This document shows positions 281 through 16,197 of a stretch of 27,932 bases of DNA, piece after piece. The first letter of the stretch is position 1. Each line of letters opens with the position of its first letter. A program made the translations under genes and the position numbers. Origin of the DNA: an uncultured bacterium. GTDB taxonomy: Bacteria; Hydrogenedentota; Hydrogenedentia; Hydrogenedentales; JAEUWI01. The stretch covers positions 1 through 27,932 of the forward strand of contig CAXBPH010000071.1 of NCBI GenBank assembly GCA_963977445.1, read 5' to 3'. Under the pieces are notes generated by a model, which did not search any database, was not told where the DNA came from, and saw only the letters and a list, made by a program, of their open reading frames with translations.

Positions 281-602
281 TATGTTGGTATATTTATCTT
301 TTTTCGCAGATTGCGTTGTGTGCGTTTAAGGTTTTCCTTGACTTATCGTATCGTATTGGTGTAGAAGGATTAAGATAAAAAATAGTACGATAGGGTGCAC
401 GGGATCTGGCTCCTCGGGGTTGTCAGATGTTTACTGTACTTTTTTGCTACAATAGACGCGTAAATACGGGGAGTATTTCGCGCCGGTTTGAGCGCGTAGC
501 CGTCCAGTCGGGGCGGGTATACGTGCCCGTAGGCGGGCGCCGCTTGATTTTGAATTAGTCTGCGCCGGTTTTTCGGGTGTGGTTTTAAAGGAGAAGGTAG
601 CT

Positions 603-3600
603 ATGCGAGGACGTAAGGCTGGAGCAATGACACAAGATTCGGCTCCACAGCCCATGGGTCTCAGAGGCAGGACGGGCATTTATGCCGTAAGCAGTCTTGT
701 TTTTGCGTTATCGACGTTATGCAATTTGGCCGTTGCCGCCCCCCTGGCGGTCGAAGAAGGCGCAATTGGCGGCGTGCTTCGAACGCTGGAAGCGCCGGAT
801 GCAACCGACGCGCCATTGATCTATCAGACCGACGAGGGATTTATACGATTTCTCGGTGCCCCTCCCGGTGGCCGCTTTCTGGTTCGCCAAGGTGCCGCAA
901 AGTCGACGAGTGCAGACTCGACCGCTTCGGTCTTTGTCGGTGACCATGCCAGTGCCTTCGGCGCGGATAGTGCCTCGACCAATTTTCGGTCCGGTCCGAC
1001 GCGCAGCTTTGGTGGCTCCGACTACGTGCACCTGGAACAGTTTTACAACGATATCCCCGTTTTCGGCGGTGAAGTTGTGGTTCAGGTGACCAACACGGAA
1101 AGCGTGCAGAATGTCATGAGTGACATCATGCGCGACACCCGCGTTCTCGATGATGGAAGTCTTTCCCTGTCACCGACGCTCTCCGCTGCCCAGGCCCTTG
1201 CAGCGGCGATAAATGATTTCGCGGCAACCTCCGACATTCACGACGCCTCCGATTATTCCGGAATTGGCACACAGACGCTCTTCATCTTTCGTCCGTCCAT
1301 CGTGGGAATTTCCGGGGCGACCCGGCTGGTGTGGAAGCTCCAGGTCGGTGCAGGCCTTCCCGAGCCCGTGCAGAGTATCGTCCTTGTCGATGCCCACAGT
1401 GGCCAGATTGCATTGAAGTATTCCCTGCTGGAGACCGCCCTTGACCGCCAGATTTTTGATGCGGATGGTGGTATTATCAAGCCCCCGACGCCCGTCCGGA
1501 TCGAAGGCGGTAGCGCCACCGGAATTCCAGACGTCGACGCCATGTATGAATTTTTGGGAGATACCTATAATTTCTACCTGAACGAGCATGACTACGACAG
1601 CTATGACGATCTGGGCAGCCCCTTGATTGCAACAGTAAATGCCCCCATCGCCAATGCCTGTTGGGGCTGCAGCCTCGATCCCATCTTCGGTGTTATCGGC
1701 ATGGAAACGGGCAGTGAAATCGTTTTCGGTGCGGGATATGCCATTGACGATGTGGTGGCGCACGAATTAACACACGGCGTAACCGAATATACATCGGACC
1801 TCATCTATTTCGGATTTTCCGGTGCCATCAACGAGTCCTTCTCCGACATGTGGGGCGAGTGGGTTGACCTGACCAATGGCAGTGCCAACGACACGGAAGA
1901 TGTTCGTTGGGCCATCGGCGAGGAATTCGGATTTCGTGGATTCAGCAACGACGGTTCTCCCGGCATCCGGAATATGAAGGATCCCACGATTTTTGGTGAC
2001 CCTGATCGTCTTGGCAGCAGATTGTTGTTTGACCCCACCTCCTTTATCGATTCCGGTGGTGTCCACATTAACAGTGGTATCGGTAACAAGCTCTGCTACC
2101 TGCTTACCGATGGCGATTCGTTCAATGGGCAGACCATTGAGGGTATGGGTATTTCCGCCGCCGCTGATTTGTTCTTCGGTACCCAGTTTCTCATGCTGCC
2201 CGGCGCGGACTACAACGATCTGTTTCTCGCACTGAGCGCGAGCGCGGTAAACCTCGGAATGAGCTTCGAGGAACGGCTGAACATCGCCAACGCGGGTGAA
2301 GCGGTGGAGATCGTTCCCGACTTCCTTTTCGAACAGGGCCTGCGTGAGTTCCGCGCTGTGCCTACGACAGATACCCTGGGCAACCCGGTTGTTGCGTTGA
2401 AATGGACCAATCCAGACGTTGCGTTGTTCGACATAATCTATCTGGTTCGTAGTGCCACCGGCTTCCCGACCAATATTGACGACGGCGAACTGCTTACGAG
2501 CGGTGTGGCGTCACAGTACCTTGATCGGGATGTGCGCGCAGGTGTCACGTACTACTACAGCGTCATCGCTGATTTGAACAGCGGACTTCCGCCCCAAATC
2601 GTTTCCGCACAGGCCAAGGCGGGTGACGTTGCTTCCAGTGCGCTTACGGAATCTTTTGGTGATGGCTTGCTCCTCTTCAGCGGGGCCAACTCGGTGGACT
2701 TGGCCTATAGTCAGCTCGTGTTCACGCCCGTCGGCGCGCCAATCAGCCCTTTGGGCAGCACGGCTGGTAGTGGCAGTTTCAATAACTATGAAGCTACGTT
2801 TATGCCCCAGGCTTTCGCCCTCCCGGTAGCCCGGGAAGATGCGGCAGGTCGCGCCCTGGATGTTACCTCTCCCCAGGATACGGGCGTGAATTTGTCGCTG
2901 GGTCAGCGAAGCTTTCCCTTCTTCGGGCAGAACTACAACCAGCTCTATATCGCGGCGAACGGCTACATCAGTTTCCAGCCCATAGCGCCTGGCGATACCT
3001 TGAATTTTCCGAGTCTGGCATCCCATTTTGCGATACCGCGGATCTCCTATTTCTTCGCGGGTAATGCCGACCTCTTGGATACGCTGGCATCGAGTGCCGG
3101 TGGTTCCATGTGGCTCCGCAACGACCTGAATGACCGCATCGTGGTCACCTACGAAAACGTACCTCAGTTCAACCCATTCAATCCCTTCAATGCGGGTGCC
3201 ACAAGTACCATTCAGACCGAATTGTTCTACAGTGGTCAAATCCGGATTACCTATCTGGACGCCGTTGCGACGGCTGCCGTCGTTGGACTTTCCGACGGTC
3301 GGGGTGTACCGGTTGACCCGGGGACCCTCTTCGCTGGCGTTGTGAGTGCTGGAGGCCTTACAGACCTTTCGTCCTTGCCCGACACGAACATGCTGCTTCG
3401 CATATCACCGGTACTTTCCGAAGCGGTGGATGCGGGTGAGCTGGTCGAGTTTACGGTATCGACGATTGCACCAGCGGATAGCATAACGGTACCGACGCTG
3501 ACGGCCGAATGGAACGGCCCTGGAGGCCTTCGATTTGCCGACAGTGGCAACGGCACGGGTCTCTTCAGTTGGCAGACGACACTGAATGATGCGGGCACCT

Positions 3601-4457
3601 ACATATTGCGCGTAACCGCTAAAGCGGATGGTCAAGTGGCCTATCAGGACGTGACGATTCAGGTCGGAAGCATCATCTTGCCCCCGACGGCCAGTGATTT
3701 GGCCATCCTGACTGGCGAAACCGGTGAAGACCCGACCTTGAGCCGGGCCGTAAAGACCGAAAGTTCCCTCCGGGCGGTTTATACCTATAGCCATCCCCTG
3801 CAGACCGACGGCTTCGACATTTACGACGAGGGCACCTCGGTGGTCTACTGGTACCGCAACAACCAGATTGTCACCAGCTTGACGAATCGCCGTCAGGTAT
3901 CGCCGCAAGCCACACGTGGTGGCGATCAGTGGTACTTCGGTGTGATACCCGTTGGTCTGTATGGTTACGGTGGTGCCATTGCCTACTCGCCCATTGTTAC
4001 CATTTCCGCGCTCCCGGAGATTGTCTCCGTATCGCCGGCTGTCGGTAGCACCCAGGGTGGCGAGGCAGTACGCATCAAGGGTAACCGTCTCAGTGGACCC
4101 GTTGCAGTCACCTTTGGTGGCGTAAGTGTGAGTAGCATTCGGGCCATTTCTGCCGACGAGATTGAAGTGGTAACGCCATTGCATGCTGCGGGCTCCGTGC
4201 CCGTGGTGGTGACCACCATAAACGGCAACGGCATCCTGAATGGCGGTTACACGTACCTCGCCGCAGGAGCTTCCCTGGCGGTGACCGATGTGAATGGTGA
4301 TGGCAAGATCGACGCCATTGACGTGCAGTTGGTTGTCAATGCGGTCCTTGCGGCAAACGCTTCTAAATCGGGTGATATTAATCCCGATGCGAACCGCGAT
4401 GGACAGGTTAACGCGTCCGACATCCAGGTCGTGGTAAATCGGGCCCTACTCCGCTAG
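603..4457 (+). CDS. Secreted M4 (thermolysin-family) zinc metalloprotease with propeptide, FN3/Ig-like regions, IPT/TIG domain and C-terminal dockerin-like domain
   Basis: Motifs HELTH (1761-1775), GAINESFSD and GGVHINSG; propeptide motifs EQFYNDIPVFGG and VDAHSGQI; IPT repeat SVSPAVGSTQGGEAVRIKG; duplicated DVNGDGKIDAIDVQ / DANRDGQVNASDIQ loops; hydrophobic signal peptide. Start uncertain: ATG 603 has a GGAGAAGG RBS, and 627 or 654 are possible. Confidence 0.92.
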   Translation: MRGRKAGAMTQDSAPQPMGLRGRTGIYAVSSLVFALSTLCNLAVAAPLAVEEGAIGGVLRTLEAPDATDAPLIYQTDEGFIRFLGAPPGGRFLVRQGAAKSTSADSTASVFVGDHASAFGADSASTNFRSGPTRSFGGSDYVHLEQFYNDIPVFGGEVVVQVTNTESVQNVMSDIMRDTRVLDDGSLSLSPTLSAAQALAAAINDFAATSDIHDASDYSGIGTQTLFIFRPSIVGISGATRLVWKLQVGAGLPEPVQSIVLVDAHSGQIALKYSLLETALDRQIFDADGGIIKPPTPVRIEGGSATGIPDVDAMYEFLGDTYNFYLNEHDYDSYDDLGSPLIATVNAPIANACWGCSLDPIFGVIGMETGSEIVFGAGYAIDDVVAHELTHGVTEYTSDLIYFGFSGAINESFSDMWGEWVDLTNGSANDTEDVRWAIGEEFGFRGFSNDGSPGIRNMKDPTIFGDPDRLGSRLLFDPTSFIDSGGVHINSGIGNKLCYLLTDGDSFNGQTIEGMGISAAADLFFGTQFLMLPGADYNDLFLALSASAVNLGMSFEERLNIANAGEAVEIVPDFLFEQGLREFRAVPTTDTLGNPVVALKWTNPDVALFDIIYLVRSATGFPTNIDDGELLTSGVASQYLDRDVRAGVTYYYSVIADLNSGLPPQIVSAQAKAGDVASSALTESFGDGLLLFSGANSVDLAYSQLVFTPVGAPISPLGSTAGSGSFNNYEATFMPQAFALPVAREDAAGRALDVTSPQDTGVNLSLGQRSFPFFGQNYNQLYIAANGYISFQPIAPGDTLNFPSLASHFAIPRISYFFAGNADLLDTLASSAGGSMWLRNDLNDRIVVTYENVPQFNPFNPFNAGATSTIQTELFYSGQIRITYLDAVATAAVVGLSDGRGVPVDPGTLFAGVVSAGGLTDLSSLPDTNMLLRISPVLSEAVDAGELVEFTVSTIAPADSITVPTLTAEWNGPGGLRFADSGNGTGLFSWQTTLNDAGTYILRVTAKADGQVAYQDVTIQVGSIILPPTASDLAILTGETGEDPTLSRAVKTESSLRAVYTYSHPLQTDGFDIYDEGTSVVYWYRNNQIVTSLTNRRQVSPQATRGGDQWYFGVIPVGLYGYGGAIAYSPIVTISALPEIVSVSPAVGSTQGGEAVRIKGNRLSGPVAVTFGGVSVSSIRAISADEIEVVTPLHAAGSVPVVVTTINGNGILNGGYTYLAAGASLAVTDVNGDGKIDAIDVQLVVNAVLAANASKSGDINPDANRDGQVNASDIQVVVNRALLR

Positions 4458-4490
4458 GTTGTTGTGCCCGTTTAATTCCGTTACACTCTG

Positions 4491-4527
4491 AACCGCCGTG
4501 TGAGATACTCACACGGCGGTTGTTTTT
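4491..4527 (+). terminator. Rho-independent terminator
   Basis: Perfect 14-bp stem AACCGCCGTGTGAG / CTCACACGGCGGTT with an ATA loop, followed by GTTTTT, just after the protease stop. Confidence 0.85.
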
Positions 4528-4561
4528 AGATTAACCATTTCAAATAGTTTTGGAGTTGTAG

Positions 4562-5773
4562 ATGGCACTATTGCCGTGGATAGTTCTTTTATGCAGTGCT
4601 GTTGGGTCCACCAACACCATTGCATTTGTCGACCAGGCAGATACACCGACCTCTCAGGTGTGTGTCGTCAACGTGGAATCCGGCGATACGGTAGCCATTG
4701 GGCCCGGTGTGCGCGATGGCGCGCCACAGTGGTCACCCGATGGTTCGTGGTTGGCCTTCGAGACCGGAGAGCGGAGCGCCCGTGCTATCTATGTGGTGCG
4801 TGCCGATGGCACCGATGGTCGGCAGCTCCAACACCAAAAGCCTTGGAACGTCATGCCCCGATGGTCAACCGATTGCACCCGTCTGGTCTATATGTCCGCC
4901 ACCTCCCCCGGGGGATTGGGAAGCCTGGCGGTCTATGATCTGCACACGGGGGAAGAGCACCTGTGGGGCGCGGGAGCGTTGGGTCTGTTGCGTCCTGTCT
5001 GGATGCCCTTCAGTAAATTGATGCGCGCCCTGGATCCCGATGTGCTGACTTCGGTGACGGGTATGAACATCGACGTTTTTCGGCGCGAGGCACGGATGGA
5101 ACGTAAAGATCTGGATGAGGATGTTCTTCCAGAAGCGTTGTTGGCGATTCAGATTGTGCTTGGTGGCAAGTCCGATCCAGGCATTCAGACCCGGGCGGTG
5201 CTGGTGACGGAGAGTGAGGTGTTGCCCTTTCTCGATATCGCGCTCAAGGAGCGTTCCGAAGGGTATGGTGCCCTCTGGCAATTGGAGCCCAACTGGGAGG
5301 GCGCTCGTTTTGGAGAAAACCCAAGGGCAGAGCGGCTATTTGGCACCTTTCCCCTGACCCGGAATGGGGAGGCCTCGCGACTGGCCTATGAATCGAACGA
5401 AGGTGGCGATCGGGAAATCTACGTGGTGGGCGGCAAGGGAAAGGCCAACGTGACCAACCACCGTTCCGCTGACTGGAATCCCGTGTGGTCCCCCGGAGGT
5501 CGCCGTCTGGCCTTTGAATCCTTTCGGGAGGTTAGACGGGCTATATACACCGTATTTACCGATACAGCCCTAATCAGCCCCATTGAGAAGGGTGACTTGA
5601 GCTCCTGGTCGCCGAGTTGGTCGCCTGACGGGGAACAGATGGCCTGTATCTCCGATCGGGAGGGGGGGGCGGGCCTGTATGTCGTTACCCTGAAGGGGGG
5701 GAAGTCAACACGTATCTCCCCCCAGGAAGTCATTGTTGACTGGCCAGTCTGGCGTCCGGAGTCCCGGGAATGA
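4562..5773 (+). CDS. TolB-like PD40 repeat beta-propeller protein, secreted
   Basis: Repeated PQWSPDG, PRWSTD, PVWSPGG, PSWSPDG and PVWRP motifs with LAFES-type strands; N-terminal signal peptide; GGAG RBS. Confidence 0.85.
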   Translation: MALLPWIVLLCSAVGSTNTIAFVDQADTPTSQVCVVNVESGDTVAIGPGVRDGAPQWSPDGSWLAFETGERSARAIYVVRADGTDGRQLQHQKPWNVMPRWSTDCTRLVYMSATSPGGLGSLAVYDLHTGEEHLWGAGALGLLRPVWMPFSKLMRALDPDVLTSVTGMNIDVFRREARMERKDLDEDVLPEALLAIQIVLGGKSDPGIQTRAVLVTESEVLPFLDIALKERSEGYGALWQLEPNWEGARFGENPRAERLFGTFPLTRNGEASRLAYESNEGGDREIYVVGGKGKANVTNHRSADWNPVWSPGGRRLAFESFREVRRAIYTVFTDTALISPIEKGDLSSWSPSWSPDGEQMACISDREGGAGLYVVTLKGGKSTRISPQEVIVDWPVWRPESRE

Positions 5774-6753
5774 TAGAGAATATCCGATTCAGGAACCGTC
5801 TCGTGACGTTGACGGTAGTTTTTCTCCTTGCCGTGTCCATCGCACGGGCCGACGGGCTGCCCCACGTTGGCCGGCCAGCGATTGTCGTTGCTGGTGACAC
5901 CTTCAGCCTCGGCGATGGGGCCGAAGCTACGGCATCATTGCGACTGGGTGACACCCGTATTCCCCTGACCGTCACTACGAATGATAAGACGGCCCCGGAA
6001 GGGAAGTGGCTCGCCGAAGTTCCCGACGGCGTCGCACCGGGACGTTACGACTTGGTGCTGACGACTTCGGCCGCAGAGACCGAACAAATCGGTGCGGTCC
6101 ACGTGCTGGAGTCCTTTCCCACGAGCTACGTGCTTGCTTTGCTTCGGGCGGACCAGGTCGACAGCACGGAGGGGACGATGTTCTCACCTGCGCTGTTGGA
6201 CATCCTGCGCGGGGCAACGCCCAATCTCGTCATCGTGCTGGGTGCGTTGACCGCCGATGGTCAGGAGAGCGCCTATGAAGCGCTGGATAGACAGTTCGCC
6301 GGCCTCGACGTGCCGGTGTTCTATTGCCCCAATGAGCAGGAGTCCGCTCGGGAGACCTATCGGGCGCGCTACGGCAATCCCGTGTACCCCCAACGATTTG
6401 GTGATGATGGCTACCTGTTTCTTGGTGGCGGTCTTTCTCACGTGGACAGCATTCATGGTGTCCGGGCGGGGCATCTGTATCGATGGCGTCGTGCACTACG
6501 TTCCAGTCGGTGGAGTATTGGCGTAGCAACCCGATATGGGCTGGATTGGTCGATGCGCGAGCAACTGGTCTTATTTGCCGATGACCCGCTGGATTATCTC
6601 CTGGCAGGAGAAGGTGTGGAAACTTCTGGGGCGAAGGTTCCCTGGAGCAACACCCGCCTTGAAACCTTCGCGGATGCCCTGTCACCCTCCCTTCAACTCA
6701 TCGATGTTTCCCAAGAGCAGTTTGTCCCCCGGATCGTGAAGGTCACGGAGTAA
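5770..6753 (+). CDS. Secreted protein with N-terminal Ig-like region and a degenerate calcineurin-like metallophosphoesterase fold
   Basis: ATGA overlap with the upstream gene; signal peptide; PNLVIVLGALT and VPVFYCPNEQE align with the metallophosphoesterase GD and GNH[DE] strands but lack the ligands. Confidence 0.55.
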   Translation: MIENIRFRNRLVTLTVVFLLAVSIARADGLPHVGRPAIVVAGDTFSLGDGAEATASLRLGDTRIPLTVTTNDKTAPEGKWLAEVPDGVAPGRYDLVLTTSAAETEQIGAVHVLESFPTSYVLALLRADQVDSTEGTMFSPALLDILRGATPNLVIVLGALTADGQESAYEALDRQFAGLDVPVFYCPNEQESARETYRARYGNPVYPQRFGDDGYLFLGGGLSHVDSIHGVRAGHLYRWRRALRSSRWSIGVATRYGLDWSMREQLVLFADDPLDYLLAGEGVETSGAKVPWSNTRLETFADALSPSLQLIDVSQEQFVPRIVKVTE

Positions 6754-6792: not shown

Positions 6793-7188
6793 CTACGATT
6801 GAACGATTGGCGCTTTCAGATGGCGACTTAGTCGTTTCTGAACGTTATCGCGTGTGACCGGTTTGCAGAGGATGTCGGTCGCCCCGGCCCGAATGGCCTG
6901 TTCCAGCGTTTTCCGTTCCTGATTGGCGGTACAGACGATAATCGGAACGTTCTTTGTCGCATCATTCTTCCGGACCCAACTGCAGACATCAAAACCGGAA
7001 ATCGTGGGCATCATCAGATCCAGAAATATCAGTTTCGGCACATCCTGCCCGATAAGCTTTATCGCATCCTCCCCGTTCTCCACCTCGAGAACATCGTGGC
7101 CCAGACTCTTGATAATGCCACCAAGAAGCCTGCGCATAAACGCGACATCGTCGACCACGAGAATAAAGCCTTGATCAAGTCTTTCCAC
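6793..7188 (-). CDS. Single-domain CheY-like response regulator
   Basis: ILVVDD, LIFLDLMMP (phospho-Asp), VCTA and CKP motifs. Likely GTG start at 7188 behind GAGAGAGG; the ORF extends to 7266. Confidence 0.9.
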   Translation of the reverse strand: MERLDQGFILVVDDVAFMRRLLGGIIKSLGHDVLEVENGEDAIKLIGQDVPKLIFLDLMMPTISGFDVCSWVRKNDATKNVPIIVCTANQERKTLEQAIRAGATDILCKPVTRDNVQKRLSRHLKAPIVQS

Positions 7189-7463
7189 AGAAGGGACCCT
7201 CTCTCGCGTTCGGACGGAAGCATTGTGTTGAAGATGAGAGCAAGTATGGATACGGCACCATCCCAACCAAACTTCATTGTAGCAAAGGCGGGGGAATTCG
7301 TCCCGTATTTATTGCAGCGTGTGTTGTGGAGATTTGGGCAGAAAGAATTTGCCCTGTAAGTAGTTAGCATTAAAACAGTTAGCCGAATCATGGCGCTATG
7401 GCTGATCCCTAATGATGTATGGCGCAAGCGGACGTCACTCAAACGCACGAGGGAGGAATGGCG

Positions 7464-8714
7464 ATGGGGCGATGGAAAAACTGGTTTCAACGAAAGAGCG
7501 AACGGGGTGTCCGGCCAGCGCCGACACCCCCGGCGGGCACCTTCAAGACCATAAGTCGGTCGGCCGACCTGGGACCACTTGGTGAAGGCTGGGGTAGCTA
7601 TGTGGGGATGCCCAACGAGACCCCCTTCGCCATGCTTCAGGTATACCGTTTTCTCCGGGACGCGATTCCCGATGTGTCGGATGCTATCTGGACCTGGAAG
7701 CGATTGTGTCAGACCGGCTACACCGTCGATTTCGAATCGGTAAGTTCGGAGGCCGCTACGGCACGGGCGCAACGATTGATAGGCGCCCTGGACAAGCGGG
7801 TGAATTCGGGCGACCGGGGCATGGAAGGTCTGCTCGATATCTTCTATACCTCCCTCTTCACCTATGGGGCCGCGGCCGTCGAAATTGTCCTGTCCCAAAG
7901 TCGTGAATCCATCTGGGATGTCGTACCCATAGATGTCTGGACGATTCGGTTTCGCCGGGAAGGGGGACAGCTTCAGGCCTACCAGGTGCTGGATGGGGAA
8001 AGCATCAAGTTGCCCATGGAGCGATTTATTTACGTGGGCCTCGACCGGGAGGGCACCAATCCCTACGGCCGTTCCATGCTTCGCTCCATTCCCTTCGTGG
8101 TCAAGATTCAACAACGCCTGATCGAAGATATGGCGAAGGCCACCCACAACGCGGGCTGGAACAAGCTGCACGTTCAGTATGGCGTTGAAGAGCGGGGGCG
8201 GGGCGAGAGCATCGAGGCCTATCAGCAGCGGATGCAGAGCAACCTCCTGGCGCTACGGGATAAGTTGAGCGGCCTGGAGGCCGACCAGAATCTGGTGACC
8301 TACGACAATGTAAACATCTCCATGTTACGGGGTGACCAGCGAACCCAGGTTTTCTACGACAACCACAAGGCCATTGAAGAGCAGGTGATTACGGGCATGC
8401 ATCTCATGCCGATTTTGTTGGGGCGTAACTATGGGACCACAGAGACCTATGGCACGGCCCAATTCGAAATCATCAATCGCCAGGTAGAAGCGGTGAACCG
8501 TAGCGTTCAGTGTATGTTGGCGCGGCTCTACAACTTTGAGCTGGCCTTGATGTGGGGCGAGGCGACGGCTCGGGTTCGCATGCGCACCAACCGCACGGTG
8601 GACGTGCTGAAGGAAGCCCAGGCCCGGGAGAAGGAAATTGGCAATGCCCTGAAGATGAAGGAGGCCGGTTTGTTGGATGAGGCCGGTCTGCGGGCGACGT
8701 TGCTGGGGAGTTGA
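7464..8714 (+). CDS. Phage portal-like protein
   Basis: About 416 aa; motifs LFTYGAAAVEIV, VVPIDVWTIRF, NPYGRSML and GMHLMPILLG match portal architecture; first gene of the head module; GGAGG RBS at 7452-7456. Confidence 0.8.
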   Translation: MGRWKNWFQRKSERGVRPAPTPPAGTFKTISRSADLGPLGEGWGSYVGMPNETPFAMLQVYRFLRDAIPDVSDAIWTWKRLCQTGYTVDFESVSSEAATARAQRLIGALDKRVNSGDRGMEGLLDIFYTSLFTYGAAAVEIVLSQSRESIWDVVPIDVWTIRFRREGGQLQAYQVLDGESIKLPMERFIYVGLDREGTNPYGRSMLRSIPFVVKIQQRLIEDMAKATHNAGWNKLHVQYGVEERGRGESIEAYQQRMQSNLLALRDKLSGLEADQNLVTYDNVNISMLRGDQRTQVFYDNHKAIEEQVITGMHLMPILLGRNYGTTETYGTAQFEIINRQVEAVNRSVQCMLARLYNFELALMWGEATARVRMRTNRTVDVLKEAQAREKEIGNALKMKEAGLLDEAGLRATLLGS

Positions 8715-8753
8715 TACTACCGTTGGACCTAACGTAATTGAAAGGAGGCTTGG

Positions 8754-9452
8754 GTGGAATTGGAACCATTTGTATTCCGACAGGCGGGACGTCTGGTGGC
8801 GTCCCGCGAGGCAAGCGAGGCGTCGAATGAGAACGATGTGGCGGCAGTAAATCGGTATGCCTTGCGCAACCTGTCGGCCGAGGAGTATGCGACCTTTACC
8901 CTCGATTTGTGTAACAACCAGATAGACCGGCACTTCAGCCGCTTCCCCGAGGAGGAACTGGAACGAATTAATGCGCTGGTTCCGGGACGTCCCCTGATGG
9001 AGCGTCATGACCTGCGGGGCACTTTGCCTCGGGGCCGATTTTTTCGGTCCACCCTCCATCAGGAAGGCGAGCACCTCGCTGTTCGCCCGGAAGTTTATGT
9101 GATGCGGAGCGCAGAAAATAGAGACTTCATCCTGAACATCGAAGGCGGCGTCTACCGGGAGACGTCGATTGGCTTTTCCTTTCGATTGCCCGAGTGCTCG
9201 GTGTGCGGCAACGATCTCCGGACCTGCGACCACGTTCCCGGGGCGACCTACGGCGAGCAAACGTGCCACTTCATCATGCGGGATGTATTGGAAGTGCTGG
9301 AAGGCTCCGTCGTTTCTTCGGGATCCCAGGGCACGGGCTTTGTCCGGGGGGAGCGTGCCGAAGACGGCCTGGAGGCGGCATTGACGGAAGCTCGGGATGA
9401 GTTTCATCGTCCCATTGAATTGGCATCGACCGACCTTTGGGCGCGGGAGTAG
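8754..9452 (+). CDS. HK97-type prohead (capsid maturation) protease with Zn-finger-like insertion
   Basis: Motifs IDRHFSRF, LMERHD (His), ETSIGF (Ser), CSVCG..CDHVPG and EGSVV; AAGGAGG RBS before GTG; lies between portal and capsid genes. Confidence 0.75.
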   Translation: MELEPFVFRQAGRLVASREASEASNENDVAAVNRYALRNLSAEEYATFTLDLCNNQIDRHFSRFPEEELERINALVPGRPLMERHDLRGTLPRGRFFRSTLHQEGEHLAVRPEVYVMRSAENRDFILNIEGGVYRETSIGFSFRLPECSVCGNDLRTCDHVPGATYGEQTCHFIMRDVLEVLEGSVVSSGSQGTGFVRGERAEDGLEAALTEARDEFHRPIELASTDLWARE

Positions 9453-9456
9453 CGAC

Positions 9457-9651
9457 ATGGCCGGAGAAAAATGCACCTGTCCTTTCGAGCCGCTTTATGC
9501 CTTGCAGGTGGAAACGGTTCGGGAAGACTTGCGGGAAGTGAAGGAGCGGGTTGGTCGATTGGAGGATACCCTGGGGCGGGGCGTACTGCTCCTGGTGGCC
9601 AACTTGATTGGGGTAAGCATAACGCTGGCGCAGCAACTGCTGTCTCAGTAG
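9457..9651 (+). CDS. Small coiled-coil protein with a C-terminal transmembrane segment (XhlA/holin-like topology), 64 aa
   Basis: ATG 4 nt after the protease stop with a GGGAG RBS; heptad pattern VREDLREVKERVGRLE followed by hydrophobic VLLLVANLIGVSITLA. Confidence 0.6.
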   Translation: MAGEKCTCPFEPLYALQVETVREDLREVKERVGRLEDTLGRGVLLLVANLIGVSITLAQQLLSQ

Positions 9652-9674
9652 ACGCAACCGGGGAAGGGGATTCT

Positions 9675-10376
9675 ATGTTGCATCGATTGCAGTGTGAGCG
9701 GGGCGGGGAAACGCGGGCAGGCACGGAGGGGGAACTACGGCGCTTCGTGCTCCATCGTCATCGGGATGGAGGGGGCGCCCATCTGGATTTGCGTCTTGAG
9801 CAGGACGGCTACCTGATGGGCTATCGCATCGACGGGCCAACGCTTGAGGGAACCCGGTGGGCCACGGTAAAGGCCCCCCATCCCACAACGTGGCTGACGC
9901 AAGATGGGGAGGCCGTCCGGGAAGACGAAGGTACGTATTTCTGGGATTCCGGCGGGGGCCACGAAGGGGTGCTGGTCCTGTGTGGTGCGCGGGATACCGT
10001 GTGTATCTGGGTGGACCCGGTGGACGACGTGAGCGCGGGGGACGTGGCGGCGTTGCGGGCTGCGGCAGAGACCATGGGGCTTGGCTTGGGGGATTTGGTG
10101 GCACTCGCCGAAGATGGGAAAACTGCCCGTGACCGTGCGGTAGCCCGCTACTGTGGCCTGGGCCGCGAACTGGACGGTGAAAGTTTCGACGACGGATTGT
10201 GGCGGCGCACGCTGGCGGGCGAACGGCTCGGGGTCGTCCAGCAATATCTCCACGGATTGGAGCTTCGCTTCGATCGCAAATATCCGCCGCTCCCGGTTTC
10301 ACAACCCGTGGCACTGGAAGAGGAAGCATGCGGCGGGGAAGATTCGTTGCGGGCGTTGAGCATACTCCGGAAATGA
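9675..10376 (+). CDS. LigD-type 3'-phosphoesterase-like domain fused to a helical scaffold-like C-terminus
   Basis: RRFVLHRH-x6-HLDLRLEQDGYL, APHPTTWL and EDEGTY resemble LigD PE FVxQKH-x5-HYDFRLE..DHPxxY..WDxGTW. RBS GGAAGGGG before ATG 9675. Confidence 0.65.
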   Translation: MLHRLQCERGGETRAGTEGELRRFVLHRHRDGGGAHLDLRLEQDGYLMGYRIDGPTLEGTRWATVKAPHPTTWLTQDGEAVREDEGTYFWDSGGGHEGVLVLCGARDTVCIWVDPVDDVSAGDVAALRAAAETMGLGLGDLVALAEDGKTARDRAVARYCGLGRELDGESFDDGLWRRTLAGERLGVVQQYLHGLELRFDRKYPPLPVSQPVALEEEACGGEDSLRALSILRK

Positions 10377-10480
10377 GCGACCCATGGACGAGAGCGTCCA
10401 TCGCGTAGATTCGGTAGTCGGCATAGTTTTTGTTTCGGGGCATGGGGCCTTTGAGCAAGGTGTAGAGGAGCAAGCAAACA

Positions 10481-10861
10481 ATGGCTTTTGGTGATACGGG
10501 TGGTTCGGTTACAGAGTTGATTATTACGTGTCGCACACCGTCGGCGGGTGGTGTAGCGATTGCGAAGGGGGATGCGGTCAAGCTGTCGGGGGCCTATGTG
10601 GTCACCAACGCTACGGACGCGGAAGATGGTGTCTTCGGTGAGGCATTGGCGGCGGCCACGGAGAATGACGTGGCGATTCCGGTGAAGGTGCGGGGTATCA
10701 GTATCTTCACCTATACGGGGACGGCCCCCACGGTGGATGGCGAGCAGGGCGTGGTGACATCGGCGACGGATGGTTCGGTGAAGGCACCGGCGTCGGGCAA
10801 TGGTCGGGGCATCAATGTGAAGGTTGATGCTACGGCCTCGTTGGTTCACGTGTTGCTCTAA
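10481..10861 (+). CDS. Capsid decoration/cement-like protein
   Basis: 126 aa, Gly/Ala/Thr/Val-rich beta pattern (IAKGDAVKL, FGEALAAA, IPVKVRGI); directly upstream of the capsid gene; AGGAG RBS. Confidence 0.65.
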   Translation: MAFGDTGGSVTELIITCRTPSAGGVAIAKGDAVKLSGAYVVTNATDAEDGVFGEALAAATENDVAIPVKVRGISIFTYTGTAPTVDGEQGVVTSATDGSVKAPASGNGRGINVKVDATASLVHVLL

Positions 10862-11065
10862 TTGGGGCGGGTGGCGCTTGGAGGACCTTTGCGTTCTCGC
10901 ACCCGTAAACGTGGTCGCGGCGCTCCCGTGTGTACGGGTGGCACCCTTGCAGTGCTTCTGGGTGGGGTAGAGTTCCTTTTGGGGCTCTTGCACCAGCAAA
11001 CATACGCGTCTGGTTAGTAACGGTTGGCATGGGCGTGTCCCGTGCAATGGATAAAGGGGAAATAC

Positions 11066-12115
11066 ATGGCTTATCAAGATACACAGATGAAAGAACAGAT
11101 TCGCTTTCTGTCGCAGTCGCCCGATGCCTTGCGGCAGGTGCGTGGGCAGGGGCTCTATGAAACGCTGAACAATCTGGGCTTGACCCACCAGCATTATTTT
11201 CGTGCCCTCGATACCTCGGTGCAGGATTACTGTGCCCAGGAATTCGGCATCGATATGAATCGGGTTACGGTGGACCGGTTTTTCCAGTCGGACCCGAATG
11301 CCAAGTGGCTTTTTCCCGATGTGGTGCGGGAGGCGGTGCTGACCGGGCTCCAGCGTAAGCCCGTGTATCCCGACCTGATTATGCACGACCAGCGGGTGGA
11401 GGGGACCGCCTGCGATGTGCCCTACGTCACGGAAGATGCCGGAAACGAGGAGCTTCGCAGTGTGGCCGAGGGGGCCGCGATTCCGGAATCGGAAATCCTC
11501 TATGGCGACCGCATCGTGAAGCTCGACAAGAAAGGCCGGGGCGTGCTGGCCTCCTATGAGGCGGTGCGCCGCATGAGTGTGGACATGTTGCGGGTCCACC
11601 TCCAGCGGATGGGTGAGCGACTGGGCCGCAGTCTGGATGCCCGTCTGGCTACAGTTTTGGCCGAGGGGGATTCGTCCGGCTCGGGCACGGCACCGGTGGT
11701 CATGAATACGGCGACGGCGGATACCTGGACCTATGGCGACTTGGTGGCGGCCTATATGAAGTTGAGCCAGGAGCACTACTTCACGCCGACGCACATGATC
11801 GTGGATAACGCCACGGCCCAGTCGGTGTTGCAACTGTCTCAGATCGCCGACAGTGCCCTCTTCGATTTCGCCAAGACCGGCAATCTGCCCACACCGCTCG
11901 GCGTGCAGCTCGTGCCCCTGGCCGATCAGCCGGCGGACACGGTGACCTTGTTGGACGCGGGCTTCGCCGTTCAGAAACTGACGGAACAGGATCTCATGGT
12001 GGAGTCGGACAAACTTATCAGCCAGCAGTGGGACCGGACCTATCTCACGGTGGTGACGGATTTTGCCATTACCTATGACAAGGCCCGTGTGGTGATGACG
12101 AGTGACTGGAGCTAG
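11066..12115 (+). CDS. HK97-fold major capsid protein
   Basis: About 349 aa; LFPDVV, VAEGAAIPE (E-loop), VKLDKKGRGVLASYEAVRR and LQRMGERLGRSLDARL spine helix; AAGGGG RBS. The true start is likely 11066 rather than 11024. Confidence 0.88.
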   Translation: MAYQDTQMKEQIRFLSQSPDALRQVRGQGLYETLNNLGLTHQHYFRALDTSVQDYCAQEFGIDMNRVTVDRFFQSDPNAKWLFPDVVREAVLTGLQRKPVYPDLIMHDQRVEGTACDVPYVTEDAGNEELRSVAEGAAIPESEILYGDRIVKLDKKGRGVLASYEAVRRMSVDMLRVHLQRMGERLGRSLDARLATVLAEGDSSGSGTAPVVMNTATADTWTYGDLVAAYMKLSQEHYFTPTHMIVDNATAQSVLQLSQIADSALFDFAKTGNLPTPLGVQLVPLADQPADTVTLLDAGFAVQKLTEQDLMVESDKLISQQWDRTYLTVVTDFAITYDKARVVMTSDWS

Positions 12116-12153
12116 GCGCTCAGCGGGTTGAGGCAGGGAACAGACCGGTGAAT

Positions 12154-12193
12154 CGGGTGCTGTGGGTGGCCAGGTGGTTGCCTGCAGCACCCG
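12154..12193 (+). terminator. Long RNA stem-loop after the capsid gene (attenuator or 3' stabiliser)
   Basis: CGGGTGCTGTGGGTGGCC-AGGT-GGTTGCCTGCAGCACCCG forms an 18-bp stem in which every non-Watson-Crick pair is G-U on the + strand. Only a weak U tail (TCTT). Confidence 0.6.
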
Positions 12194-12225
12194 TCTTGGC
12201 GTGGCGAAACGTGGGGAGTGTGGCT

Positions 12226-12639
12226 ATGGCGGCATGGGCGACGGAAGTCGGGGTTCGGTTGCGGGTACAGGTGGACGATGTGGGTGTGGCGAGTTCCGCA
12301 TTGGTGACCGCCTGCATTGAAGAGGCCCACGAACGGATTCTGGCCGAATTGGATGAGAGCATCGATGTAGAGGCGGCACCGGAGGCATTGGCGCAGGGGG
12401 AAACGCTGCTGGCGGCAGCGGGACTCATGAGCGCCCTGGCCTCCGGGGATGCGGCGGAGCAGGTGTCCCTGCAGATTGGTGGACAACGAATCGATGGGGG
12501 GCAGCGCTTCGCTTCTCTCCTGAGTGTGGCCCGTCGCTTTGAAAAAGAAGCGGCGGTTCTCCTTGCGCCCTATATGCGCAGGGCGTTGGCACAGGTTCCG
12601 GGGGACGTGACGAAATCAATCGACGTGCTGGGCGACTGA
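12226..12639 (+). CDS. Head-tail adaptor/connector-like protein
   Basis: 137 aa, helical (WATEVGVR..LVTACIEEAHERI..SLQIGG..LLAPY), the pattern of gp6/gp15/gp36-type adaptors; follows the capsid gene; GGGGAG RBS. Confidence 0.6.
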   Translation: MAAWATEVGVRLRVQVDDVGVASSALVTACIEEAHERILAELDESIDVEAAPEALAQGETLLAAAGLMSALASGDAAEQVSLQIGGQRIDGGQRFASLLSVARRFEKEAAVLLAPYMRRALAQVPGDVTKSIDVLGD

Positions 12640-12666
12640 GCGGGTTCGGGGTAGAAAGGGGGAAGG

Positions 12667-13350
12667 ATGGCAATTTCTGTTGGGGACTATTCCTTTGATG
12701 AGCGCCACACGACGGCACGGGAAACCTATGAAGCCGTGGGGGGCAAAGAAACACGGGTCGTTACAATTACGGGACTGCTGCGGGGCGCAGCGGATCGGGC
12801 GGCCCTCGACGGCGCGCTGGACACGATTATGCAATTGGCTTCTGCGGAGGAGAGCGTTTCGGTGTCTGTTCGTTCGGGACGACGTATCCTGGCCCGTCGG
12901 GAGAGTTTTTCGCGGGAGGTCAACGAACGTACGCTGACGGGGCAGTTTGTGTTGACCATGCGCGCCGACGAGGCCTTCGAGGAGTCTGTCGTCCTGCACG
13001 AAACGGCCTGGAGTATTGGTGCATCCGGCGCGACCCTTGAGCTGAGTCCGGGAGGATCGGCGGCGAGTCCGGCGGTGATTAGCATCGATGCCCTCGGGGA
13101 ACTGGTGGCCCCGACACTGAGTGACGGAACCCGGACGTTGACCTACGAAGGGGTGGTGCCTCTGGGGGCGCTGTTTGTGGTGGATGGGGAGGCCGCTCAG
13201 GTATGGATTGACGACGAAGACGTGACGCCCTATACCGTGGGGGCTTTTCCTGAGCTGGGGCCGGGCGCAACGACCCTGACCTACAGCGACGGCGCGACGA
13301 GCAGTCATCTTGCCGATGGGGTGGTGGCCTATCGTGATCGGTGGTGGTAG
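12667..13350 (+). CDS. Distal tail protein (Dit)-like siphovirus baseplate component
   Basis: Pattern RVVTITG, FVLTMRADEAF, PAVISI, FVVDG, FPELGPGATTL and terminal YRDRWW is typical of Dit proteins; strong purine-rich RBS. Confidence 0.7.
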   Translation: MAISVGDYSFDERHTTARETYEAVGGKETRVVTITGLLRGAADRAALDGALDTIMQLASAEESVSVSVRSGRRILARRESFSREVNERTLTGQFVLTMRADEAFEESVVLHETAWSIGASGATLELSPGGSAASPAVISIDALGELVAPTLSDGTRTLTYEGVVPLGALFVVDGEAAQVWIDDEDVTPYTVGAFPELGPGATTLTYSDGATSSHLADGVVAYRDRWW

Positions 13351-13352
13351 CC

Positions 13353-15092
13353 ATGACTTATGTCGTAGAAGTCGTTGACCGGAATGGCCTGCGGGTGGGA
13401 CGTTTCACCGACGTACCCCTGCTGGAAGTTACACGCACGGGTCCCGATGGTGACGACCGTATCGAGGGACTGCTGCCCCTGTCGCTGGCGCGCTTTGGCG
13501 TGGGCTATACCGTGCGGGTATTGGTGGAGGGCGCGGTGGTGGCTCACGGCACTGTGACGTCCGCCCGACCCGCGTGGGGCGACATACGTCGATTGATTGT
13601 GGACCGGTACGTAGATTTTCAGGAGCTCTTATCCGTCGTCGCCATTGGTCGGTGGGAGCCCTGGAATCGCCACGTTTCCGTGCGTATGGAAAACAGGCCG
13701 GTCGATGAGATGGTGCGTACCTTAATCAATCATGCCCTGGGGGCCGTGCACTACACGGTTGCCCATGGGGCCTATCCCGATGGGGCCGTTCGAGAATATG
13801 AGAAGTTCATCGCCCGTAAGGCATTGGCTGGGGCCCTGCCCTATGGGGGCATCGACAGTGGTCAGTGGGTGGGTGGCGCGCGCATTGACACGACCGGAGC
13901 CTATGCGAAGGACGGAGATACCATCGCGGGCCTGGTGGTGGATGGGGTGACCTGGCCGGACCTGCGCTTGATGATGGTCGACTGCGAGGAAAGCAGTCTC
14001 AACAGCCACGGTATAGGACGCCATCCGGAAACGGCGACCTGGGACAGTGCCCGCTACGCCCGTAGCGTGTATAAGCAGCGGGCCGATGGCGCTACCGCAC
14101 GGCTGCAGGCCTATATGGATGAAAAGGGCATTGATTATATCGAGCTCAATCCCCACCAGGATGGAGGCGGCGACTACGATGACCGGGTGGATGCCTATGG
14201 GCGCTACATTGGCCTGGTCTACGGCGGTGGGGAATGTTTCAACGCGGGGCTGGTGGAAGAGGGGCATGGGGACGTCTATCTCTACGACGACGGCCGCTTT
14301 CATGTGCCGGAGATGGCGCTGAAAGACTTTTACTCCTACGTGGGCGAACACGAAGACTCCATCGCCCCGTGTGAGACGGTGGTGGGTGCGCTGGACATCC
14401 GGGGTGGGGTCCTGGAGGCCATAACGGCCCTGGCGGCCATGGGCGATGGCTATGTGTTTCAGGTGGATGTCGATGGGGGCGTCCATTTTCGACGGGGAGA
14501 CGTGGTCGACGCCGTGGTGCCCGTCGTGCCAACGACGGTGGGCGTAGAACTCGGTCGGGATATCGCCGGGTTGGCCAATTTGCTGCACATTGAGGGGAAT
14601 CCCATCGATGGCGTGGCAGACGACTATTATGCTCAGGAGGAAAGTATCGATCTGTTGGGCACCGCTTCGCGCTACTTTCCGTATTACGCCCTGAGTCGTG
14701 TCGACGACGGGGCCCTCCTGGGGCAGGGGTTGCTGCGGGATCTGGCGTGGCCGGCTCGGGTGGGGCGGGCCTTGTTCTATCGGGGCGTGGCGCACCTTGT
14801 GCCGGGGACGCTACTCGAGTTTCGCGGGGACGTGCTCGAAGAGCGAGACGAGCCCGTGGCAGCGGGATGGGCCGATCGGCTCGGGCAGCGGTTGGTCGGT
14901 CGGGTAAGTCGCGTGGTCCATCGGCTGGCGGGCGCAACCGTGGAGACCCAGCTGGACTTGACCTCGCCCTATCGCTCGGTGGCCTCGCCCCTGAGTTTTA
15001 TCACGCGGAGTCAGGATAGTTTGTCCGAGTTTTTTCAATTTCGTCTGGATGACCCGACGATTGGGTTGGATATCGGGTTCCACCTGGATTGA
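13353..15092 (+). CDS. Baseplate hub/Tal-like tail protein with an inserted staphylococcal nuclease (thermonuclease) domain
   Basis: Follows Dit. Hub-like N-terminus (YVVEVVDRNG) and C-terminus (VLEAITALA..FQVDVDGGVHFR..LANLLHIEG..ESIDLLG). Internal DGDT, LRLMMVDCEE and DAYGRYIGLVY..FNAGLVEEG SNase motifs. Confidence 0.75.
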   Translation: MTYVVEVVDRNGLRVGRFTDVPLLEVTRTGPDGDDRIEGLLPLSLARFGVGYTVRVLVEGAVVAHGTVTSARPAWGDIRRLIVDRYVDFQELLSVVAIGRWEPWNRHVSVRMENRPVDEMVRTLINHALGAVHYTVAHGAYPDGAVREYEKFIARKALAGALPYGGIDSGQWVGGARIDTTGAYAKDGDTIAGLVVDGVTWPDLRLMMVDCEESSLNSHGIGRHPETATWDSARYARSVYKQRADGATARLQAYMDEKGIDYIELNPHQDGGGDYDDRVDAYGRYIGLVYGGGECFNAGLVEEGHGDVYLYDDGRFHVPEMALKDFYSYVGEHEDSIAPCETVVGALDIRGGVLEAITALAAMGDGYVFQVDVDGGVHFRRGDVVDAVVPVVPTTVGVELGRDIAGLANLLHIEGNPIDGVADDYYAQEESIDLLGTASRYFPYYALSRVDDGALLGQGLLRDLAWPARVGRALFYRGVAHLVPGTLLEFRGDVLEERDEPVAAGWADRLGQRLVGRVSRVVHRLAGATVETQLDLTSPYRSVASPLSFITRSQDSLSEFFQFRLDDPTIGLDIGFHLD

Positions 15093-15134
15093 GGGTAGTT
15101 CAACGACGGTGGCAACGCAGGGGAGGGAATTAAC

Positions 15135-15656
15135 GTGGCGATTAAAGGACAGTCCTACACCAAGACGCAGTGGATATTTGAGGAACGTCCCGTTTCGAGC
15201 GCGAAACTGAATCAATGGGATGACCGCATTGAGGCGGCGCTGGAAATGGCGTTTTTCCTGTTGAACCAGGCCTGGGGTGGCGGTAGTGGCGTATTGCGGG
15301 GAGTGAGCGCCGGAACGCTGGCGGTGACGCCTGATTCGCCGGAGAGCATGTCCGTCATCGTCGATGGAGGCTATGCCTTTGTGGAGTCCTACCCCTTTCG
15401 GTTGACGGAGGCATCGGCTGTGGCGGCGATTGTGCCGCCGACATCATTGGGGCGAATCGACCTCGTGCTGACGGATTTGTCGACCTGGGGCATTGTCGTG
15501 AAAAAGGGGCTGGAATCGGCATCGCCCGTCGCGCCCGATGTGGGGGCCGGCACCATGGCCCTGGCGGAATTGGTGTTGCGTCCGGGCATGTCGTCAATCC
15601 GGTCGATTGACGATGGGGTAAATGGGTATATCACGGATGTGCGTACCTTCCTGTAG
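15135..15656 (+). CDS. Minor tail/baseplate structural protein
   Basis: N-terminal YTKTQW..SAKLNQ motif seen in tail fibre/upper baseplate proteins; MSVIVDGGYAF, RIDLV, PVAP and LAELVL minor tail pattern; GGGAGG RBS before GTG. Confidence 0.6.
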   Translation: MAIKGQSYTKTQWIFEERPVSSAKLNQWDDRIEAALEMAFFLLNQAWGGGSGVLRGVSAGTLAVTPDSPESMSVIVDGGYAFVESYPFRLTEASAVAAIVPPTSLGRIDLVLTDLSTWGIVVKKGLESASPVAPDVGAGTMALAELVLRPGMSSIRSIDDGVNGYITDVRTFL

Positions 15657-15713
15657 GCCGTGATGGTCTTACAGGCGGCGCACGGGGTCAATACAAAGGA
15701 GGCATGGAAAGCT

Positions 15714-16064
15714 ATGGGAATCGACGTAGGGGTAACGGTACTGGGCACGGTGCTTGGCGGGCTGTGGGCGACTTTCAAGGCAAGTGATCGCTATCAGCGG
15801 ATGGAGCAGCGCCGATTTCGGCAGGCGCTCCTCGCACTCGAAAGTGGGGTCGAGCGGACCTATCAGGCCTATGTGAAGGCCATTAAGGCGGGGCGGGCCG
15901 ATGGGCGGCTTACGGAAGAGGAGAAGGCCCGGGCACGCTCCATGGCGCGCATGCGGGCCATCAAGCTGGCGCGGGAGGAGGGCATTGATCTGCTGCGCAC
16001 CATCGGGGAGGACTACATCGATGTGTGGATTGGCCGCCTTATTGGACGACGGAAAAGAATTTAG
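15714..16064 (+). CDS. Holin-like membrane protein (one N-terminal transmembrane helix plus charged helical tail)
   Basis: VGVTVLGTVLGGLWATF transmembrane segment, then GVERTYQAYVKAIK..GRLTEEEK; last gene of the virion operon; AAGGAGG RBS. Confidence 0.5.
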   Translation: MGIDVGVTVLGTVLGGLWATFKASDRYQRMEQRRFRQALLALESGVERTYQAYVKAIKAGRADGRLTEEEKARARSMARMRAIKLAREEGIDLLRTIGEDYIDVWIGRLIGRRKRI

Positions 16065-16091
16065 AATGGTGAATTTAGAATAGTGAATTAA
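16057..16091. repeat. Heptamer tandem repeat (GAATNNN)x5
   Basis: GAATTTA GAATGGT GAATTTA GAATAGT GAATTAA, overlapping the stop of the holin-like gene. Confidence 0.7.
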
Positions 16092-16154
16092 ATGGTCTCA
16101 CCATCAGGTTGTTGACGTTGGGTGCTGATTGGCGTAGGCTGGATAAAGATAGTG

Positions 16155-16197
16155 GGCGGGGGCGCTTCCATTTTGGGGGGCGCCCCCGCCTTTGTTT
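16155..16197 (+). terminator. Rho-independent terminator closing the virion operon
   Basis: GGCGGGGGCGC / GCGCCCCCGCC 11-bp stem, extendable inward by G-U pairs, followed by TTTGTTT. Confidence 0.8.

Follow-up and report, generated by a model that had tools for sequence, protein, structure and literature searches.

We describe a gene for a baseplate hub protein with a nuclease module inserted in it, at positions 13353..15092 (+) of a 27,932-nucleotide stretch of DNA from an uncultured Hydrogenedentota bacterium (contig CAXBPH010000071.1; the whole stretch is called the window below). Structure prediction shows the product, 579 aa from its ATG, modelled as a hub of the gp27/Mu gp44 type with an internal module of about 210 residues, and this module holds a complete domain of the staphylococcal nuclease (SNase) type. 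The active-site set of that domain is intact and under purifying selection in the aligned relatives and, judged from sequence, the hub nuclease is probably catalytically active and Ca2+-dependent. The gene lies in a block whose order is conserved in 70 species-level genomes, with unrelated cellular flanks and under purifying selection, and these features together suggest a virus-like particle that has been domesticated and bears at its tip an enzyme for cutting DNA.

The hub reading frame is open from a GTG at 13341 (583 aa), which adds four residues to the product of the ATG at 13353; the latter is the consensus start of the hub family and lies 2 nt after the stop of the preceding gene, which codes for a homologue of the distal tail protein (Dit). 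Residue numbers given here follow the 583-aa numbering from GTG 13341. The N-terminal hub part (residues 5-136; 13353..13748, +) is delimited by the secondary structure of the AlphaFold2 (AF2) model and by the colinear part of P0145, a relative that has no SNase domain, and it comprises the beta-rich first hub domain and the first helix of the next domain. The inserted module (residues ~137-345; 13749..14375, +), which is missing from P0145, opens with a leader segment containing a helix at 147-162 and continues with the SNase domain, whose core (residues ~186-335; 13896..14345, +) has a helical elaboration at 222-262. The C-terminal hub part (residues 346-583; 14376..15092, +) then runs to the end of the protein and closes with a conserved low-confidence tail, FRLDD..GLD..HLD. 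Two segments outside the nuclease core are also strongly conserved. The leader into the core (residues 137-185, 13749-13895) has many invariant residues (H137, Y138, H142, G148, A149, E152, K155, R159, W176 and R181) in a stretch for which SNase has no counterpart. The extreme C-terminus (residues 567-583, 15039-15089) is highly conserved, yet its predicted local distance difference test (pLDDT) score is below 50, and the tail may serve to dock a partner, for instance the 173-aa protein encoded downstream.

The AF2 model of the hub protein reached a pLDDT of 81.4 and a predicted template modelling score (pTM) of 0.80, with low confidence at 80-83, 271-280, 311-330 and 572-583. When it was compared with the PDB by Foldseek, hub proteins ranked first, with E values from 4.6e-11 to 1e-5, and SNase entries came after them. 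The top matches were the Neisseria 43-kDa tail protein (3d37; E 4.6e-11, template modelling (TM) score by target 0.58) and MuSo2 (3cdd), and further matches included Mu gp44, T4 gp27, T5 pb3 (7zqp_b, E 1.7e-9), Listeria gp18, 80alpha Tal and VgrG (8gra_G, 4mtk_A and 7q5p_A), as well as the hub proteins of PVC, AFP, AlgoCIS, Anabaena CIS, diffocin and pyocin. The alignments with hub proteins took 550-590 columns for targets of about 325 residues and covered the whole query around a gap, and therefore bridge an internal insert. A structure search of BFVD returned viral proteins named 'tail protein', '43 kDa tail protein', 'gpP' and 'minor tail protein'. Together with the Dit gene that precedes it, these results uphold the preliminary description of the flanking parts as a gp27-like baseplate hub, with the four-domain fold of such proteins. 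The label used there was 'baseplate hub/Tal', and its second half does not hold in the strict sense of a lysin-bearing Tal, since Pfam, PHROGs and NCBIfam recognised no lysin domain in it and it ends with the hub fold, with no C-terminal extension.

The view that the SNase module is a discrete insertion is supported by P0145 (368 aa, 36% identical), in which the N- and C-terminal parts are joined directly, without residues ~137-345. Folded with the family alignment (pLDDT 90.6, pTM 0.88), P0145 is predicted to be a complete hub without the module, with a best Foldseek E value of 2.3e-17, TM scores of 0.54/0.60 to Mu gp44 and of 0.50-0.62 to the hub set, in alignments that take in 350-366 of its 368 residues. 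Since P0145 is a singleton, on a contig of 3.3 kb, it shows modularity while leaving ancestry unaddressed; it could be a deletion or an assembly artefact. A search seeded with P0145 gave 2 matches only, P0145 itself and one 579-aa member, and an exhaustive phmmer search with the hub among 1.84 billion representatives found no broader SNase-less family, its 54 matches all being full-length or fragmentary members of the hub family. On the basis of secondary structure and of this deletion variant, the insert begins past helix 121-131, with which the domain next to the beta-rich first hub domain opens, and by analogy with T5 pb3 we infer that the domain bearing the insert corresponds to hub domain II.

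That the insert is an SNase-type domain with an OB fold and all catalytic residues, as had been proposed, is confirmed by the agreement of the family profile, the Pfam matches of its relatives and Foldseek. With the window protein as the query, the best phmmer match in the PDB was SNase (E 0.005, colinear stretches 188-233 and 278-323), and PHROG 452 'endonuclease' was matched at E 8.9e-4. A profile built from 41 sequences of the hub family (alignment A1) found SNase in the PDB at E 1.9e-7, and 60 of the 60 rows shown were SNase/thermonuclease variants. The Pfam family PF00565, whose use as a check had been proposed, gave a divided answer: the window protein falls below its cut-off, but 37 of the 41 relatives match it at E <= 0.01 (best 3.4e-9). 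In the Foldseek search of the AF2 model the SNase structures 4odg/3lx0 were matched at E 3e-5 with TM by target of 0.59-0.64 over ~150 columns and 20-23% identity, which bears out an OB-fold barrel with SNase topology in a model that is locally weak at 271-280 and 311-330. NCBIfam yielded only a match below threshold, to the calcium-activated nuclease EcnA (E 0.0019, 18 bits against a cut-off of 180). The preliminary description had also remarked that the C-terminal SNase helix was not evident, which holds only in part: the YxY segment does have equivalents and there is a short helix at 328-333, although both fall within a low-confidence stretch (pLDDT 43-47).

The catalytic motifs lie in one frame and at exactly the positions first noted. 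DGDT (D191 G192 D193 T194; 13911..13922, +) corresponds to SNase D19-T22; R209, D214 and E217 (13965..13991, +) to R35, D40 and E43; and R282-V-D284-A-Y286-G287-R288 (14184..14204, +) to R81, D83, Y85, G86 and R87. The longer strings cited for the last two motifs, LRLMMVDCEE (residues 208-217, nt 13962-13991) and DAYGRY (from residue 284, nt 14190), are likewise where they were said to be, and the spacing from R209 to D214 (+5) and E217 (+8) is that of SNase. In alignment A1, the residues D191, G192, D193, T194, R209, D214, E217, R282, D284, G287 and R288 were invariant (41/41), and they match SNase D19, G20, D21, T22, R35, D40, E43, R81, D83, G86 and R87, respectively; the equivalents of D19, D21, R35, D40, E43 and R87, which had been reported as present in the window protein, are thus fixed among its aligned relatives. 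The equivalent of Y85, Y286, is Y in 30 of the sequences and F in 11. The Ca2+ ligands of SNase are D21, D40 and the T41 carbonyl, with E43 as the general base and R35/R87 completing the set, and in the alignment D193 is the match of the ligand D21. At the position of T41 the residue changes between relatives (C/A/S/T), which is unsurprising where the ligand is a backbone atom.

A wider check covered 202 distinct family sequences of at least 300 aa, drawn from protein matches and from the 70 genomic loci. The full catalytic set was found in 187 of them, six had one substitution and four were fragments or lacked the catalytic region. Mean column identity was highest in the SNase region (0.785, versus 0.655 in the N-terminal part and 0.62 in the C-terminal part). 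For the 14 closest of 18 locus pairs above 72% identity, the ratio of nonsynonymous to synonymous substitution rates (dN/dS) was 0.064-0.153 for the whole hub gene and 0.037-0.137 for the SNase core.

The hub protein search gave 313 clusters at E <= 0.001, and nearly all of the 120 listed were 578-584 aa long; wherever a taxon was given among these 120, it was Candidatus Hydrogenedentes or Hydrogenedentota. Among species-representative genomes, 147 pattern matches were reduced to 71 confirmed matches at 70 loci in 70 different assemblies, nearly all of them labelled Hydrogenedentota, and we take the few bins labelled otherwise to be mislabelled. The block genes were located in these loci by tblastn with the window proteins, and many of the loci are cut by contig ends. 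Wherever the contig was long enough, the 10-gene block, from the portal gene to that of a 134-aa protein (7419-16191), was colinear. The Dit gene was matched in 65 of the 70 loci, with the order Dit then hub kept in all 65, and counts for the remaining genes were 62 for the 173-aa protein, 59 for the adaptor, 55 for the capsid, 50, 47 and 42 for head-module proteins of 126, 301 and 232 aa, respectively, 43 for the 134-aa protein and 40 for the portal. Identity across loci was 61-91% for the capsid and 54-88% for the portal, and pairwise hub distances correlated with those of the other block genes (r 0.65-0.84).

The block itself codes for phage-type structural proteins. It starts with a Mu-type portal protein (7419..8714, +; PHROG 3753 E 4.3e-45, Pfam Portal_Mu E 9e-7), followed by three head-module genes (232, 301 and 126 aa; 8754..10861, +) that are colinear in the related loci, with matches to PHROG 16951 (E 8e-38) and to PHROG 4588 'virion structural protein' (E 2.3e-6). 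An HK97-type major capsid protein (11024..12115, +; Pfam Phage_capsid_4 E 1.7e-14, PHROG 3922 E 4.8e-50) comes next, and then a probable head-tail adaptor of 137 aa (12226..12639, +; reading frame open from 12148), for which there are leads from the Atlas only, namely the SU10_adaptor, Phage_connect_1 and Mu Gp36 clusters. The Dit homologue of 227 aa (12667..13350, +) matched PHROG 33 (E 2e-8) and the Pfam SPP1_Dit C-terminal domain (E 0.001), and its profile found 2x8k_A 'protein 19.1' in the PDB (E 2.3e-6), which we take to be the Dit of SPP1. The 173-aa protein (15135..15656, +) that follows the hub is similar to the N-terminal anchor part found in baseplate and fibre proteins of the BppU/collar type (PHROG 5339/3398, E 2e-6 to 1e-4; Atlas TM by query 0.64-0.74, a lead only). 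Profiles of the adaptor and of the 173-aa protein found nothing credible among PDB sequences. The last gene of the block codes for the 134-aa protein (15660..16064, +), and a strong terminator-like hairpin of 16 pairs, 13 of them G-C (16154..16191, +), closes the block. In the whole window, Pfam, PHROGs and NCBIfam recognised no tail tube, tape measure, sheath, terminase, integrase or lysin; the rest of it is cellular and, by Pfam, includes an M4 peptidase, a PD40 protein, a DJ-1/PfpI protein, a PSCyt/PSD1 protein and an RND efflux system. The GC content of the block is similar to that of its flanks, and it has no tRNA.

Because portal, capsid, Dit and hub are all of phage type, we considered whether the gene could be the Tal of an ordinary temperate phage or of a decaying prophage remnant. 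The surroundings of the block in other genomes speak strongly against this. The cellular neighbours seen in the window recur in the 4-6 closest loci only, and in the 10-kb flanks of 10 divergent loci, from which 45 open reading frames (ORFs) were picked out of 256 of at least 130 aa, the 32 with a Pfam match belonged to cellular families only, the other 13 having no match. No integrase, replication, tube or tape-measure gene was found among these 45 ORFs, and by this sample the flanks were cellular in 10/10 loci. Furthermore, over a range of 38-94% identity the ORFs stay uninterrupted and subject to purifying selection, the hub found no tblastn match in 50,697 phage records, and the capsid found 11 distant records only among them, at no more than 32.5% identity. 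An ordinary phage or a remnant of one is accordingly a very improbable source of the gene. The colinear block, the cellular flanks, a terminase usually encoded elsewhere, the correlated distances, the flank-like GC content and the lack of tRNA point instead to a possible phage-derived system that is long resident, domesticated and split between loci, akin to gene transfer agents (GTAs), and the cellular neighbours shared by the closest 4-6 loci give indirect support to its putative vertical inheritance.

The terminase was found through PHROGs, run on 14 ORFs (12 of the unmatched flank ORFs and two window ORFs). One of these is a large terminase (TerL; locus L067, 1205-2749, +; PHROG 2, E 9.4e-23), and a homologue 72% identical to it lies near the portal gene in locus L005 (133-1614, +). 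TerL sits 1-2 genes upstream of the portal in both loci, and no homologue was found in the window or in the other loci. The family has 396 clusters, of which the 120 listed are 65-93% identical, and the named taxa among these are of the Hydrogenedentes type except for one Nitrospiraceae row and one 'bacterium' row. One member lies on a contig equal in length to that of locus L024, though beyond the 10-kb flank. Since the family is no less widespread, and better conserved still, but stands near the block in two loci only, TerL would usually be encoded at a separate locus.

These data also bear on two further functions for the nuclease, both of them suggested beforehand alongside the digestion of eDNA from biofilms, and both of which we consider less likely than an extracellular one. 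In the first, the enzyme would act in the producer and fragment chromosomal DNA for headful packaging, an idea that draws on the GTA-like context. However, the domain is covalently joined to a protein of the tail tip, remote from the vertex at which DNA is packaged. TerL proteins have a nuclease of their own, and the Ca2+ requirement argues against activity in the cytoplasm. We therefore regard this function as hardly credible. In the second, the hub nuclease would be a toxin delivered into the periplasm or cytoplasm of a competitor, in the manner of the nuclease effectors on spikes of type VI secretion systems (T6SS) and other contractile injection systems (CIS). The hub fold is indeed common to VgrG and to the spike-hub proteins of extracellular CIS (eCIS), and the nuclease is on the component that first meets the target. 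On the other hand, the domain is internal to the hub fold rather than a C-terminal cargo that could be detached, neither sheath nor spike genes were found, the hub gene has no evident immunity gene adjoining it, and the strong conservation of TerL, portal and capsid points to DNA packaging. An SNase-type enzyme would, moreover, find its need for Ca2+ unmet in the cytoplasm. A killing device is in our view improbable, if somewhat less so than a packaging nuclease.

With these functions weighed, we lean, at a little better than even confidence, towards a block that is a vertically inherited, domesticated GTA-like particle rather than a prophage, with a hub nuclease that is active, Ca2+-dependent and at work extracellularly at the particle tip. 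SNase-type enzymes need millimolar Ca2+, levels that are not found in the cytoplasm, and the nuclease would therefore be silent in the producer cytoplasm and near the packaged DNA, and act on the outside of the cell. Three copies would stand at the distal end of the hub, presumably a trimer, and extracellular millimolar Ca2+ would switch them on. They could then digest extracellular nucleic acid, either the extracellular DNA (eDNA) of a matrix or the DNA or RNA on a target surface, and so let the particle reach the cell envelope. The OB-fold domain might also help to keep the hub shut at its distal end until it is triggered, upon which the hub domains would swing outwards.

Several observations weigh against this interpretation. 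A nuclease placed next to the channel through which DNA leaves looks like a hazard to the cargo. Neither a tail tube nor a tape measure, small terminase or endolysin was found, and the particle is a putative one, predicted from its genes. The window protein itself scores 16.4 bits (E 0.013) against PF00565, whose gathering score is 21, and two of the low-confidence stretches of the model (271-280 and 311-330) are inside the SNase core. Finally, five divergent members of the 202 (P0122, P0123, P0125, P0126 and P0149) have lost at least two of the D21, R35, D40 and E43 equivalents and kept the domain, so that catalysis is dispensable in some lineages. A domain kept after such a loss must also have a non-catalytic role, which keeps alive the explanation that the SNase domain is mainly structural, an OB-fold plug or a nucleic-acid-binding adhesin at the hub tip, with hydrolysis irrelevant or vestigial. 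The five lineages without the equivalents at D193, R209, D214 or E217 do retain R282, D284 and R288 (R81, D83 and R87 of SNase), and, according to 10.1101/2022.09.20.507954, it is by insertions in hub domain II and by OB domains that the tube is shut in T5, RcGTA and myophages. However, a pure scaffold would not keep the Ca2+ ligands and the general base fixed, and the full set is present in 41/41 and 187/202 sequences, with the SNase part the most conserved of the protein and its dN/dS at 0.04-0.14. We consider a mainly structural role unlikely, though deserving more weight than the packaging or killing functions.

A more specific proposal would be that the block encodes an undescribed and vertically inherited viriform of Hydrogenedentota, with a capsid and a minimal tail (adaptor, Dit and hub, with no tube or tape measure), a terminase encoded elsewhere and a hub bearing an active, Ca2+-gated SNase. 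We put this forward as tentative and rather doubtful in its full detail. If it holds, the particle uses a nuclease, not a glycan or peptidoglycan hydrolase, to pass through eDNA-rich matrices or to act on nucleic acid at the surface of a recipient, and a GTA-like system has arisen independently with a new kind of tail-tip enzyme.

Other features in and around the block are less directly tied to the hub. A receiver-only response regulator (6793..7266, -; Pfam Response_reg E 2e-27) has a gene that points away from that of the portal and occurs at the same position in only four related loci (L002, L003, L020 and L025); it might be a regulator of the block, of which its membership is uncertain. 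Within the head module there is a variable slot, between the homologues of 8754-9452 and 9471-10376, where 14 of 41 loci have more than 600 bp of extra sequence, up to 2.3 kb; a 570-aa ORF in this slot (locus L008, 4636-6348) has no Pfam match and shows patchy similarity to the inserts of other loci. The 134-aa protein at the end of the block has no family match. Its single hydrophobic segment (residues ~21-39) leads into a helical part of high charge, and it is holin- or spanin-like in shape only; it is possibly a membrane or lysis protein. Upstream of the block (window 579-6753), the genes of three proteins travel together: a 327-aa protein with no assigned family, a PD40 beta-propeller protein and an M4 (thermolysin-like) peptidase that also has TIG and dockerin domains. 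The set is near the block in six loci (L001-L003, L005, L025 and L028), being inverted and downstream in L005.

In regards to novelty, the nuclease call alone is not new, since annotation pipelines already flag relatives of the hub protein, some of those listed being named 'thermonuclease family protein' or 'endonuclease YncB'. Our literature search, whose coverage was incomplete so that absence is unproven, found no description of a nuclease as an insert in a Tal or hub protein, and, within the same coverage, none of this Hydrogenedentota block or of a GTA-like element in that phylum. The enzymes known from the tail tips of phages and GTAs act on polysaccharide or peptidoglycan. A conserved and apparently active nuclease in the hub, where DNA exits the particle, would be a different solution, and it raises the question of how the cargo is protected. 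It would also bear on how particles cope with eDNA-rich flocs and sediments. If confirmed, the block would represent an independent GTA-like lineage across an uncultured phylum, in a compact 10-gene system that could be expressed heterologously.

Compared with the SNase family (PF00565; 1ey0, 4odg and 3lx0), the hub insert has the same OB-fold core and the same order and spacing of D19, D21, T22, R35, D40, E43, R81, D83, Y85 and R87. It differs in being an internal module of a 579-aa structural protein rather than a free secreted enzyme, in a helical addition of ~30 residues that separates the equivalents of E43 and D77, in a conserved leader of ~50 residues (H137...R159), and in a C-terminal helix that is short or uncertain. 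With gp27-type hubs (Mu gp44 1wru/9ki1_G, MuSo2 3cdd, Neisseria 3d37 and T4 gp27 1k28_D) and the N-terminal parts of siphophage Tal proteins (80alpha 6v8i_AE and p2 ORF16 2wzp_R), the protein shares the fold over its N- and C-terminal parts, and the hub gene directly follows Dit as in siphophage tail-tip modules. Unlike in those systems, the enzymatic domain is within the fold, there is no C-terminal lysin, spike or fibre extension, and there are no tape measure or tube genes upstream. Evolved VgrG proteins and T6SS/eCIS spikes also link a gp27-like hub to a nuclease; however, their effectors are C-terminal extensions or bound cargo and are fired by a sheath, whereas here the domain is internal and no sheath is encoded.

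The likeness to GTAs (RcGTA-type viriforms) lies in chromosomal phage-derived structural genes that are conserved throughout a host clade, are apparently divided between at least two loci and, in the flanks sampled, lack neighbouring replication or integration genes. The block described here, a putative GTA-like system, is nevertheless from an unrelated host phylum, has no detectable sequence kinship with them, and consists of 10 genes with no recognisable tube or tape measure. A biofilm-degrading tailspike of RcGTA is reported in a 2026 preprint and offers a functional parallel, since there too a GTA tail would carry an enzyme that breaks down a matrix. That hub proteins can have insertions is itself already known: according to 10.1101/2022.09.20.507954, the tube of T5 pb3 and RcGTA is shut by a large insert that hub domain II bears, the insert of RcGTA contains an OB domain, and in myophages the tube is closed by an OB domain. 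Judged by secondary structure and by P0145, the module of the Hydrogenedentota hub appears to sit at the equivalent place of the T5 pb3/RcGTA hub (megatron), in the domain after the first tube-like one. The insertions of T5 and RcGTA are non-enzymatic plugs, whereas the one reported here has a nuclease fold with an intact active site.

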